64,000 nt of DNA from contig OZ024747.1 of NCBI GenBank assembly GCA_964016885.1, positions 17,174,001 through 17,238,000 of the forward strand, read 5' to 3'. Made by a program: the position numbers and the translations under genes. This DNA comes from Eledone cirrhosa. Lineage: Eukaryota. Below, piece by piece: positions 11,186 to 27,815 of the stretch (position 1 is the first letter of the stretch; each line of letters begins with the position of its first letter). The notes beneath the pieces were generated by a model. The model did not search any database and had not been told where the DNA came from. It saw nothing but the letters and a program-made list of their open reading frames with translations.

Positions 11186-11410
11186 ATATCACAGAAAAAA
11201 AAGAGAATCAGTGTTGCGACGAATGGAATTTATTGGACATATTACAATCGTTTCTCTGGCGACCAGCTCGAAGCTCGATCGATATGATGATCGAACTTGA
11301 CTCTGAAAATCGCAAGGTCCTCAGATACGTCTTGATTCTCTTTTTTTTCCTGTGATATCATATTCTGCTCGATGAGTATACGGACGCTTTAAGCATCCAA
11401 CACGAATTAC
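11186..11410 (+). mobile_element. PLE-terminus-like element (family C): inverted arm plus 52-nt tail, inside (TA)n
   Basis: ATATCACAGAAAAAAAAGAGAATCA / TGATTCTC(T)nCCTGTGATAT inverted ends; HHR in the inverted arm. Confidence 0.7.
11236..11331 (-). ncRNA. Type I hammerhead ribozyme with extended helix II
   Basis: Minus strand: GACGUAU CUGAGGA C[CUUGCGA...UCGCCAG]A GAAAC GAUU GUA/ AUAUGUC; 7-bp helix I. Confidence 0.65.
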
Positions 11411-11434
11411 ATATATATATATATATATATATAT

Positions 11435-12014
11435 ATTGTTATGCTTTGGGAGGGTCATGTTGCCAATAAGAAACACACGCACCAGCTGCTTTCACTTTAA
11501 TTTATTATAAATTAAATTCATAAAATTAGGAATTTATAAATTTCCAGTTGGTTGGTTGGTTCGACAACCAGACTATTGTTCATATATTGTCAAAGTTCTT
11601 TCGTCACACATTATGTGACCTCTTCAGTGACTGGGGATTCTTTTCTTTGTTTTTTTTGTGTCTCTCCTTTGTCCTGTCCTACGCCAAGATGGTGTAGGAC
11701 AGAACAAAGGAGAGGCACAAAAAAATATAAAAACAAAAACGAAGAAAAGAATCCCCAGTCACTGAAGAGGTCACACAATGTGTGAGGGAAGAACTTTGAC
11801 AATATATGAACAATCGTCTGGTTGCGGAACCAACCAACCCACCAACCGGAAATTTATAAATTCCTATATTTATGAATTTAATTTATAATAAATTGAAGTG
11901 AAAGCAACCGGTGCGCGTGTTTCTTATTGGCAACATGACCCTCCCAAAGCATAACAATATCGGTTTCAACACACGTTTTCAGATAGAGAATCTTGCTAAA
12001 CAAATTCAGAAACG
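11435..12014 (+). mobile_element. Solo 5'-truncated copy of the PLE pLTR in inverted-pair arrangement
   Basis: 11686-12014 matches 27173-27480; 11435-11685 is its reverse complement lacking the last ~54 nt; flanked by (TA)n on both sides. Confidence 0.92.
11589..11631 (-). ncRNA. Minimal type I hammerhead ribozyme of the PLE pLTR
   Basis: Minus strand: GUCA CUGAAGA G GUCACAU-AAU-GUGUGAC GAAAG AA CUU/ UGAC. Confidence 0.7.
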
Positions 12015-12177
12015 AAATATATATATATATATATATATATATATATATATATATATATATATATATATATATATATATATATATATATATATATATATAT
12101 ATATATATATATATATATATATATATATATATATATATATACATATGTGTGTGTGTGTTTATAATATATACATGTTG

Positions 12178-12395
12178 TAAGAGTTTTGGACTTACGATCA
12201 TAATGTCGTGGGTTCGATTCCTGGGTTGCGTGTTGTGTTCTTGAGCAAAACACTTCATTTCACGTTACTCCAGTATAGTCAGCTGAAAATAAGTAGCAGC
12301 AATAGCTGGAGGTTTAACCCTACGATGGACTGGCGTCCTGTCCAGGGGGTAGTCTTCTACTCCCAGATAGCAAGAAGTGTCATCGAACCACTGAT
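12178..12395 (+). mobile_element. tRNA-derived SINE family 2 with a conserved central domain
   Basis: B-box GGTTCGATTCC, GTGTTCTTGAGCAAAACACTT motif and CCTACGATGGACTGGCGTCCTGTCCAGGGG (V/Meta-SINE-like). Confidence 0.7.
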
Positions 12396-12964
12396 CTAAT
12401 AATTACTAATAGAACTTCTTAAAAATGCAATACATGCTACGCCAAAGAAAAAGAAAGATGGGGAAACAGAGATACAGTGCAGGAGAAGATAAAAATAGAG
12501 AACCAGAAGCTTGCGATGAGGGGGTGAAGGAAGGGAAAAAAGAACGACTTGTAAAATAAATAGAAGCAAAAAGCTATATATATATAAACAAATATGTGTG
12601 TATATTTGTGTGAGTTTGTTCAGATTGTGTTTGCGTCAGAATGTGTATGTGCCTGTGTATATTCGTATGTGTGGGTGTGAAGGGGGGGATTGTATGTGTG
12701 TGTATTTGTGTGTGTGTTTGTATGTGTGCGTATGTATGTTTGTATGTGTGTGTGCGTATTCGTGAAAGTACGTTGTTTAGCGGTTTGAATTCTCAACTGA
12801 CGGTCGTAAAAGTTGTGGGTTCCATGCATCTGTGGGGCGGCCAGCACGTGGGACTCCATTTGCTCACCATATAGAGAGATGGGGAGGGCGAGAGAGATGG
12901 AGTCGGTGACAGTGGAAGTTCGGCTCCTCCACGTTCGGACTATATCCTTGTGGTTGTGTTCATG

Positions 12965-24390: not shown

Positions 24391-27028
24391 ATGCCTCTCA
24401 CCACCACCACAATTTTAACAAACAGACAGACACAGAAAACAGGTAATGACAGTAACACAGAAGTAAGGGTAGGTAATGAAATTGAAAGGAGAAGGGAGAC
24501 TATCTATACTGACAGAGAAAATAACCAGGACGAACACACAGACACACAAAATAGAGTAGATAATAACAATGAGCCAGAGGAAAGAGACAGGAGTAATAAT
24601 GAGAGACATAGAAACAACCATGAGGCTGTTGGTGGAAATAGAAATAGAAACAACACAACTAACAATAACAATAGCAATAGTACACATAAAGCAGCAGCCT
24701 GGAACTCTACTTTTTATAATCATTCCGATAAGTCCTTCGAACTACGACGAGTCCACGCCACGACTTTAGCTTTTAACAAACTTACGCAATTGCCGTCGCA
24801 GGTCGATGAACAAACAGAAGCACAATTTAGTATAACTAGATCTAAACTTAGAAATATTATAGAAAGTATAGCAAGAAGCAAAATAGAATGGAGGCCCAGC
24901 AACTGGGAGAAAAATCTGCAAATGTCTTGCGTAAGCTCATGCAGCGCTCGCGTGATGGAGAGATTGCGCATGCTTTCCAACAGACAAGTCTGGCAGAATG
25001 TCGGTTGACAGTCTGTCAAACTACATTCAGGCAATGCAACCCCACATCACTAACACAAGAGAAGTAACACCACATAATGCAGCCCAACAAAAGGACTGCC
25101 AACAACTTCCAGGACTGGAACAATGACGTGCCAGCGTTGTATGGGCTTCGAAAAGACCATAAAACGAGCAGTGACCTTGTCACAGGACCACCTACAAGGC
25201 CAGTCTGTGGAGCTAACATTGCTAGTAACTACAGACTTTCCTACTTCCTCTCCCTGATCATACGCCCCATCATTGAAATGTCCCCAGATATATGTGACAG
25301 CACGGAGGACCTCCTCAGCAGAATCGGCGTGAGTAACCGATCTAGGGACCTAACAAACTGTATAATAGGAAGTATGGATGTTGTGTCCCTATATAGATCC
25401 ATTGACGTAGATTTTGCTGTGGAGAAATGCGTAGAAATGATCAGTGAGAGCAATGTTGAATTCCGTGGGATTGATACCAGTGAGCTGGGACTCCTACTTA
25501 AACTTACCTATAGTAATGATTATCTAGATACATATGACCTTAGCAACCTGTGCCCTACAAGACCAGCAAGATGCAGACCACCTACCATTACCTCAATGGC
25601 CAAGAAAACCCACACAGATAGATGGAACGGGTGGACCAGAGCCATACGGACCCCCGAAAACCACGATGAACTAAAGAAAATGATTGCACATACCGTGGGG
25701 GCCAGTATAAAATTAACCCTTAAGGAACATATGTTCAAATTAAATGGAAAAACATATGCCCAGGAGGAGGGAGCAGCCATTGGTGTGGTGTTAGCATTGC
25801 AGGTGACATAGCTAACCTATTCATGGTATGGTGGGACAATAGACTTAAACTTAAAGAAAAATTAGAAGAGAACAACCTCTTAACCCTGATAATGTACTCC
25901 CGCTACATTGATGATATAAATATCATAGTAAAAACACCCCCACTAGAGAACAGTCAGGAATTAGAGAAAAACACCATGGAAAGCATCCAGCAAATAGCTA
26001 ACTCCATCCACCAGAGTATTAGAGTTACTATAGACTACCCAAGCAAACACCCCAACCATCGATTACATGTACTAGACACAGAGCTCTGCTTAGAAATCAT
26101 TAATAACAAAAAAACAAATCCTCCATTCCCATTATGCCAAACCCATGACTTCCAAATATCTGATCCACCGAAACTCAGCTGTTTCGGACCACACCAAAAT
26201 CAACATACTGATTTCAGATTTGGTACAGGTGATGAGAAACGTGTCTCGCATGTGCAACCCAAAAGAACTAGAGAGACACATACAACACTTCATCCACCGT
26301 ATGCAGTTCTCTGGTTACAATCAGAGAGATAAAATCAGAGTATATAGAGGAGCCAGAACCAAATGGGAAAAAATGGTAAATAAGGATACAAATGGGACCT
26401 GCCCCTTGTATAGGAGCAAATTTTCGAATAGAATAGAAAGAACTAGGAATAAGGTTAATAGAAGAAACTCATGGTATGATAGCAATAAATACCAGAGTGT
26501 AATGTTCATCAATACAACCCCGAGATGTGAATTAGCTTACACATTTAGAAGGGCCCTAGATAAACATGAACTCAATATTAAGATAGTTGAAAGACCAGGT
26601 ACCTCCATAAAAACACTTATTAGCAATACATACCCTTTTCAAAGACCTCCCTGTATATATAAGAAATGTATAATCTGTAAGCTAAGTCCCATATTAACTG
26701 TAAAACTAGAAATGTAGTATATAGCATAATATCTACTGAAGGATAATGTAGAGATAAGAATATAGTGTACATAGGTGAGACAGCTCGTAGGATAGGAGAA
26801 CGGATAAATGATCACTGGCGAGACCTTCAAGACAGTAAGGAATAATCTGTACTCCACCAACATGCTAAAATAGAACATAAGGGTAAATTAGAGAACATAG
26901 AAATAAAAATAGAATCTACACACAGAAAAGACGCAATGTTTAGACAAATCACAGAGGCAATAAACATAAATGAACTCCAACCAAAAGTAAATAGAAAACA
27001 TGAATGGAATAGCAACATCCCAACTTAA
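24391..27028 (+). pseudogene. PLE RT-GIY-YIG polyprotein with several frameshifts and a stop
   Basis: PTDKSG (24977), LYGLRKDHK, PTRPVCG, SMDVVSLY, QEEGAAIG, YSRYIDDI, LHVLD, MQFSGY, CIYKKCIIC...C linker, NVVYSII...VYIGETAR...RINDH...HQH...RQITEA...NRKHEW. Confidence 0.93.
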
Positions 27029-27228
27029 GGACAAAATGAAAACACACACACACATAGAACAAACAACCAACCCGTAACATCTAAATAAACAAATAAATAA
27101 ACAAATATAAACACACACACAGACAACCGGATGTTACACATGTGCAAACTAAGCACACAACACACACAAAAACAAGATGGCATAGGACAGAACAAAGGAG
27201 AGGCACAAAACAAAGAAAAAAATCCCCA

Positions 27229-27271
27229 GTCACTGAAGAGGTAACAGAATGTGTGACGAAAGAACTTTGAC
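27229..27271 (+). ncRNA. Minimal type I hammerhead ribozyme in the PLE 3' pLTR
   Basis: GTCA CTGAAGA G GTAACAG-AAT-GTGTGAC GAAAG AA CTT TGAC; helix II has two mismatches relative to the 11589 copy. Confidence 0.65.
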
Positions 27272-27676
27272 AATATATGAACAATCGTCTGGTTGTGGAA
27301 CCAAGCAATCAACCGGAAATTTATAAATTCTTAAATTTATAAATTTAATTTATAATAAATTGAAGTGAAAGCAACTGGTGCGTGTGTTTCTTATTGGCAA
27401 CATGACCCTCCCAAACCATAACAATATCGGTTTCAACACACCTTTTCAGATAAAGTATCTTGCTAAACAAATTCAGAAACGATATATATATATATATATA
27501 TATATATATATAGAGAGAGAGAGAGAGAGAGAGAGGGGGGGGGGATAAGAAAATGCGAAGTAGTTTCAATCCTTTATATATATATATATATATATATATA
27601 TATATAAAATATTAAAAAAATAATGAATAAAACAATGAAACAGTTCCTTATATTAAACAAAAAAAGTTCATTATTT

Positions 27677-27815
27677 AACGATCGTTTCTAGGATATATAT
27701 GTGTTAGAATTGGCATGCATATTCAACAGATCTATGTACAAAATTATACAAAATTATACAAACTATCAAAATTAAATATACATACCAACACATATATATG
27801 CCGTCTTCAGAGATT
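27677..27815 (-). ncRNA. Hammerhead-like motif with helix II of about 115 nt, probably another PLE terminus
   Basis: Minus strand: CUGAAGA C GGCAUAUAUAUGU...ACAUAUAUAUCCU A GAAAC GAUC GUU; helix I not evident. Confidence 0.45.

Follow-up and report, generated by a model that had tools for sequence, protein, structure and literature searches.

Five hammerhead motifs in the window

The window is a 64,000-nucleotide (nt) stretch of the 3.0-Gb genome of Eledone cirrhosa (GCA_964016885.1, contig OZ024747.1, 17,174,001–17,238,000). It carries five hammerhead motifs in type I order, all on the minus strand (H1–H5, named by the position of C3), each at the 3′ terminus of a Penelope-like element (PLE), of the Hydra clade where a link to an open reading frame (ORF) was found. 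The original prediction had described them as hammerhead variants with a very long helix II and a non-Watson–Crick pair at 10.1–11.1, where G-C is normally conserved. All five were confirmed at the places first noted, with the same letters and with spacers of 63, 103, 62, 90 and 115 nt.

H1 (11236–11331) is the sole intact copy among the five. Its helix I has 7 bp (11331–11325 / 11242–11236), C3 lies at 11324, and a 63-nt helix II insert (11317–11255) separates the core box CUGAGGA (11324–11318) from GAAAC (11254–11250). The 10.1–11.1 pair is C·A, pair 4 of helix II is U·C, helix III is near-palindromic, and the GUA site places the predicted cut between 11243 and 11242. The 3′ tail of the element follows (11182–11235, minus strand), with AATAAA at 11234–11229, and terminates at (TA)n; its end recurs inverted at 11333–11363.

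The other four copies are in different states. H2 (15089–15234; C3 at 15222) has a 12-bp helix I, a core at 15222–15216, a 103-nt insert, GAAAC at 15112–15108 and GUA at 15103–15101; it carries C/U at 10.1–11.1, the base of its helix II is decayed, and it is a decayed member of an old family. H3 (19910–19997) has a 62-nt insert, A/A at 10.1–11.1 and a GUA site. This copy is damaged: the letter at the C3 position (19997) is G, giving GUGAGGA, and this letter and the 5′ strand of helix I differ from the family sequence. A partial inverted copy lies at 20676–20781. H4 (20217–20340) occupies the middle of two copies inverted head to head (about 20160–20500) and combines a core at 20332–20326, a 90-nt insert that begins with A·A followed by G-C, GAAAC at 20235–20231, a palindromic helix III, GUC at 20226–20224 and a weak helix I. 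H5 (27670–27815; core 27810–27804, GAAAC 27688–27684, GUU 27679–27677) has a 115-nt insert in the form of a long hairpin, C·A at 10.1–11.1, C·C at pair 4 and a palindromic helix III. It lacks the 5′ strand of helix I through truncation; other copies (loci L095 and L221) have a 10-bp helix I.

A structural scan of the window returned six hammerhead folds, compared with a mean of 0.27 (maximum 2) in 60 shuffles. Long folds with a helix I of at least 6 bp numbered two, against a shuffle mean of 0.03 (maximum 1), and among H1–H5 this helix I filter was passed by H1 and H2 only.

The pair 10.1–11.1 in family consensus sequences

Each of the five motifs belongs to a dispersed repeat family. We tallied 30 fetched copies per family (seven full-length copies for H5); these are best matches and so biased toward the query. 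C·A was present in 30/30 copies of the H1 family and 7/7 of the H5 family, and A·A in 30/30 copies of the H3 family and 27/30 of the H4 family. The proposal that the mismatch is a family trait therefore holds for these four. It fails for H2, whose family has A-U in 27 of 30 copies and C/U in one, the window copy itself; because the family consensus is A-U, the C/U of H2 is private decay. The GUGAGGA core of H3, listed originally as part of the motif, is likewise private to the copy, since C3 is kept in 26 of 30 family members and the family core is CUGAGGA.

All five consensuses carry CUGANGA, GAAA and NUH in type I order, and in none is G10.1–C11.1 restored; it is present in sister subfamilies. 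Contigs from four sequencing runs of unspecified kind, among which the source sample may be included, showed no alternative letter at 15% or more at 10.1 or 11.1 of H1. A first look gave 1,634 candidates for the H1 family, with most matches 95–97% identical. In the H1, H4 and H5 families most matches exceed 90% identity, which indicates that amplification was recent and that the mismatch was already present. The five are not the unrelated families that recurrence had been taken to imply: H1 and H3 are 75% identical and thus sister families rather than independent cases, and the H3, H4 and H5 lineages lie behind ORFs of the same PLE clade.

Genome-wide abundance and detectability

Genome-wide pattern counts were judged against reversed-pattern controls. 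With an insert of 53–83 nt, the pattern with A or C at 10.1 and A at 11.1 (M·A) gave 5,109 matches (control, 157). The G-C pattern gave 1,606 (control, 34), among them sister subfamilies that share the inner helix II signature of H1/H3, and G·A gave 232 (control, 57); by eye, none of the 100 G·A matches listed resembled a hammerhead family whose own consensus is G·A. With any pair allowed, inserts of 84–125 nt gave 27,160 matches (control, 1,396), those listed being mostly H4, H5 and their relatives. The corresponding total for 53–83 nt, 21,641 (control, 1,100), is inflated, because 30 of the 100 matches listed are, by eye, one coding stretch of the reverse transcriptase (RT) of a long interspersed nuclear element (LINE). 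This LINE stretch (G000 C1, for example 225159–225231) fits the loose hammerhead pattern by chance and is a source of false positives for relaxed descriptors.

A strict scan covered 89 stretches of 10 kb at fixed positions (890 kb) and returned 51 type I folds, compared with 0–1 in five shuffles. The insert was at least 50 nt in nine of the 51, which scales to tens of thousands of long-insert folds per genome; seven folds had G-C at pair 1 (10.1–11.1), none of them among those nine. The expectation that standard descriptors could miss the motifs was borne out for Rfam. Rfam returned no hammerhead at gathering score in the window and none among the best 150 of 267 E-value matches listed, and in eight loci it returned a single partial match of 16.1 bits (cut-off 34). 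Censuses resting on Rfam or on short-helix descriptors overlook the long-helix PLE motifs.

Association with Penelope-like elements

Same-strand ORFs with RT and GIY-YIG domains lie ~600 nt upstream of H4-family motifs at five loci (L141, L142, L143, L164 and L302). Hydra-type ORFs lie upstream of H3-family motifs at L138 and L140, and upstream of a sister family of H5 at L157 and L280. H1 is tied to PLE ORFs solely by its kinship with H3, and H2 has no ORF link. By eye, the ORFs at L141, L142, L157 and L138 contain RWK, DKT, a CxCX5C linker and, at the C terminus, a GIY-YIG domain with CxxC and CxH. RWK, DKT and CxCX5C are given as marks of the Hydra clade (PMC8557442; here and below, PLE and hammerhead papers are cited for the sections covered), and the linked ORFs appear to match that clade by comparison of motifs by eye, without a tree.

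The 3′ ends share further features. The median distance from the predicted cut site to the microsatellite that follows it is 56–98 nt in H1, H3, H4, H5 and the related H5b, and AATAAA occurs within 40 nt of that site in 31/32 H1, 23/25 H3, 27/29 H4 and 0/25 H5 copies. The scored family copies retain the tail 3′ of the predicted cut. In the H1 and H3 families most copies have lost nearly all of their 5′ part and many lie beside an inverted partner, and in this they resemble PLEs described in the literature.

Covariation and folding

We aligned 44 subfamily representatives of the H1/H3 lineage, picked by core-containing patterns and by eye. The named structure had a covariation score of 0.345, compared with 0.197 for shuffled and at most 0.116 for slid alignments. 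Two-sided changes were found at helix II pairs 2, 3 and 5 in 11, 12 and 16 of the 44 rows, and at two helix III pairs that form only in the dimer in 14 and 18. Helices I, II and the dimeric helix III are thus supported by covariation in this lineage. Helix III consists of 8-nt self-complementary palindromes, for which the energy of the self-duplex ranges from −5.8 to −13.3 kcal/mol. The H5 fold beats its shuffles (z = −5.5). In a cross-family alignment of the long inserts, the interior of helix II was not alignable.

Pair 4 of helix II stood out by eye. Among 20 clusters with inserts of at least 23 nt, for which most of pairs 2–7 were required to be paired and the failing pair was left free, it was mismatched (mostly C·C) in 12; pairs 2, 3 and 5 were mismatched in 0, 1 and 1. 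The pair-4 mismatch occurs in H1, H2, H3, H5 and families with 23–45 nt inserts, with covarying neighbours, and is absent from the G-C sisters of H1 and from families with 79–97 nt inserts. The H1 lineage also has a conserved internal loop in helix II (11261–11293; alignment columns 32–41 / 64–73) consisting of three pairs, tandem A·G/G·A, U-G and a C·Y mismatch; the rows showing it were partly chosen for that signature. This loop is possibly a protein or tertiary contact, and loop II is probably too distant for the usual helix I / loop II tertiary contact. We considered a kink-turn for the tandem A·G pairs of H1 and rejected it by eye, as it does not fit.

History of and constraint on the pair

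In a midpoint-rooted tree built without the pair-1 columns, the mismatch rows fall in one clade (starred; 97/93), in which 11 of 12 rows are neither G-C nor G-U. The long helix likely arose first and G-C was lost afterwards, because this clade nests among G-C rows with equally long inserts (56–63 nt). In the H1/H3 lineage, the alignment columns that hold G-C in some rows hold C·A or A·A in others, with no gaps between them; the change is therefore a substitution and not a shift of register. Close relatives carry G-C, G-U, A-U, U-A or U·U at pair 1. The mismatch is not bound to the long helix: short-helix families in the genome often have U·U there, and long-helix sisters keep G-C.

To sample the lineage blind to the core, we used a pattern inside helix II (5,578 matches; control, 0) and obtained 29 distinct sequences from 30 loci. 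Core columns were more conserved than non-core columns (0.90 versus 0.70; p about 1e-4, with the columns not independent). Position 10.1 was the most variable of 50 columns (0.41), and pair 1 was paired in 13 of 29 rows, compared with 25–27 for pairs 2, 3, 5, 7 and 8. The variability of 10.1 suggests that the mismatch reflects relaxed constraint rather than selection for it. Sequence comparison supports selection for catalysis in the lineage as a whole, and gives no significant support for it in the mismatch branch taken alone.

Other features of the window

Other motifs resembling hammerheads, whose helix II is short or of medium length, lie at 10066 (+), 40991 (−), 42989 (−), 44446 (+), 57402 (−), 57845 (+) and 63098 (+); the motif at 40991 is of the U·U type and that at 42989 of the A-U type, and G-C types are also present among them. 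At H4 (20216–20260, minus strand), eight nucleotides within the helix II insert are perfectly complementary to the 3′ strand of helix I. In copy L064 the minimum-energy fold uses this complement, which would block the hammerhead fold.

A broken PLE at 24145–27480 (plus strand) contains RT (YSRYIDD), a CxxxxCxxC linker and a piece of GIY-YIG, and looks more Neptune/Nematis-like than Hydra-like. Its 3′ repeat recurs at ~11433–11960 as an inverted pair with cores at 11627 (minus) and 11762 (plus). We rejected H5 as a part of this element: the two are on opposite strands with (TA)n between them, and the PLE has its own short hammerhead at 27233.

Nested inverted repeats occupy 19335–21302, with outer arms (19335–19863 / 20780–21302) that are 96–98% complementary; pieces of H3 lie inside, and the H4 inverted pair is inserted in the central (TA)n. 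A ~190-nt dispersed repeat with many copies (10753–10941, 12965–13153, 15257–15556 and 16475–17330) is likely a short interspersed nuclear element (SINE). Outside the window, an ORF that by eye resembles a von Willebrand A domain exon (L027:2010–2636, plus strand) lies ~500 nt from an H1-family insertion.

Discussion

The location of the motifs, the family-wide mismatch, the covariation of the helices, the palindromic helix III and a core conserved throughout the H1/H3 lineage are direct observations. We consider it fairly probable that they reflect type I hammerheads of PLEs whose helix II has grown to ~60–116 nt, in many families of which the G-C pair has given way to C·A, A·A, U·U, A-U or U-A, and which are predicted to self-cleave slowly, as dimers. 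Two copies would exchange strands by way of helix III, an 8-nt palindrome, as is known for PLE hammerheads. A long stable helix II could secure the junction and make the closing pair dispensable for stability. Loss of G10.1 would weaken the A9/G10.1 metal pocket, so that the rate drops, though not to zero. The N7 of G10.1 and the phosphate of A9 bind a metal ion, and removal of N7 costs about 30-fold (PMC6961537, PMC6795133); a change of G10.1 would thus be expected to leave a slower but live ribozyme. Published PLE hammerheads show weak cleavage in vitro and low dimer activity (PMC4209133). Slow, dimer-dependent cutting would spare the tail of the 3′ terminal copy for reverse transcription and leave tandem transcripts processable. 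Retention of the tail in the scored copies implies templates whose terminal motif had not been cut, and would fit such cutting.

Several observations weigh against this interpretation. RNAalifold predicted no pairs on the 44-row subfamily alignment, whose rows, as stated, were picked partly for their core. Single-copy folds of H1, H3 and H4 were no better than shuffles (z −0.2 to −1.4), and the hammerhead fold of H1 lies 2.3 kcal/mol above the minimum-energy fold. Helix I of H4 is weak throughout a young, ORF-linked family (duplex +1.4 kcal/mol). Among 377 loci, mostly of at most 3 kb, we found one real same-strand pair of the same family, 4.8 kb apart, and 35 inverted pairs in the fetched loci, with overlapping loci counted repeatedly. 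In the mismatch branch, core conservation did not reach significance: the 19 core-blind rows with A11.1 gave 0.90 for core versus 0.84 for other columns (p = 0.16), shared variants within families fell at 0/33 core versus 16/287 other sites (p = 0.17), and H1 and H3 differ at 0/11 core versus 22/119 other sites (p = 0.11).

The strongest rival explanation is that catalysis has been lost or become negligible in the mismatch families, with the element spreading all the same and the long hairpin being kept as a 3′-end structure for the reverse transcriptase of the element. The non-significant core signal in the mismatch-only rows, the recent amplification of H4 despite its lack of a proper helix I and the tail retained 3′ of the cut site all fit such a vestigial ribozyme, and proliferation in the absence of canonical hammerheads has been reported for Naiad PLEs (PMC8557442). 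Covariation of helix I and of the dimer palindrome nevertheless persists across the lineage, the differences between H1 and H3 spare the core entirely, and about a dozen A11.1 families, found by core patterns, keep both boxes and NUH. On balance we regard loss of catalysis as unlikely, although it deserves more weight than the other alternatives.

Somewhat less likely again is a specialised variant in which A11.1 pairs non-canonically with A, C or U at 10.1 and extends the sheared A9·G12 stack, with the loops of helix II (Y·C at pair 4, and tandem A·G/G·A in the H1 lineage) providing a tertiary or protein contact by which efficient cleavage would be regained. A trans Hoogsteen/sugar-edge pair with A suits A, C and U but excludes G. 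The A11.1 families do use A, C and U at 10.1, and the scarcity of G·A beside M·A in the genome-wide counts, with no G·A consensus among the matches listed, agrees with this, as does the concentration of mismatches at pair 4. Against it, close relatives also carry G-C, G-U, A-U, U-A and U·U at pair 1; the families are related, so that a dozen or so without G·A amount to few independent trials; and the pair-4 mismatch is missing from the G-C sisters and the 79–97 nt families. The boldest form of this idea would make the motifs a very abundant Hydra-clade subclass lacking the G10.1 metal pocket, with a non-canonical N10.1·A11.1 pair, with the loops of a 60–116 nt helix II as a new tertiary or protein-binding module, with efficient predicted cleavage, and invisible to Rfam and published descriptors; we hold this to be doubtful.

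A shifted register that retains G-C, with an extra nucleotide after A9 and an extra A before G12, could draw on the G-C at pair 2 of H4 and of an 83-nt family and on the published consensus with an extra nucleotide between 9 and 10.1 (PMC4209133), but appears largely refuted for H1/H3 by the shared gap-free columns and a C-G at pair 2, and is very improbable in general, as relatives of H4 and H5 toggle pair 1 to A-U or U-A in a constant register.

Comparison with known systems

Neither hammerheads at PLE ends nor a mismatch at 10.1–11.1 is new. Natural U10.1·U11.1 hammerheads have been described (Perreault et al, 2011, PMC3088659; axolotl HHR_Amex2, PMC7229834), and U·U is cited in that literature as the best tolerated mismatch. 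These ribozymes share a mismatch at the base of helix II with ours, but theirs is U·U on a short helix II, and the sections covered make no mention of C·A or A·A. In File S2 of Craig et al (2021, PMC8557442) we counted 14 rows with U·U among the 26 of the Hydra clade; the file has one C/A row, PLE-X1_cBra, which is not Hydra, and no A·A row. In the literature on PLE hammerheads, with figures and bioRxiv supplements outside the search, we found no helix II longer than 54 nt, none of 60–116 nt and no family-wide C·A or A·A. The sections covered contained nothing on pair 10.1–11.1 in PMC9901934 and nothing altering our reading in preprint 10.64898/2026.07.22.740005, PMC13725137, PMC6765202, PMC6962438 and PMC6155905.

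The motifs share the core boxes and type I order of Rfam Hammerhead_1 (RF00163), a model that does not reach the long-helix forms. Like the minimal, dimeric hammerheads of PLEs (Cervera & de la Peña, 2014, PMC4209133), they lie in PLE end repeats, have a palindromic helix III and predicted dimer cleavage, and occur as many solo truncated copies with inverted neighbours. In the consensus of that type A9 is followed by an additional nucleotide, G10.1–C11.1 is highly conserved and helix II has 7–8 bp, and the portion of its 56-motif alignment covered here contains short helices only; the Eledone motifs lack the additional nucleotide, have the pair substituted without gaps, and carry inserts of 62–116 nt.

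The closest match is to the hammerheads of Hydra-clade PLEs in File S2, which are also type I, lie on the sense strand near the 3′ end, have a short palindromic helix III and insert at (TA)n. Their helix II spans at most about 26 nt in the Hydra rows, with about 54 nt in PLE-X1_sMoe, which is flagged as deviant. In the families described here it spans 60–116 nt, and C·A and A·A are the family consensus in thousands of copies. What appears to be new, judging from sequence, is therefore an abundant set of PLE hammerhead motifs, predicted to be ribozymes, that combine this long helix II with a family-wide C·A or A·A. The H1/H3 lineage forms a natural series in which position 10.1–11.1 of one scaffold is G-C, G-U, U·U, U-A, C·A or A·A, so that both the dependence on the G10.1 metal site and the role of PLE hammerheads become directly testable.

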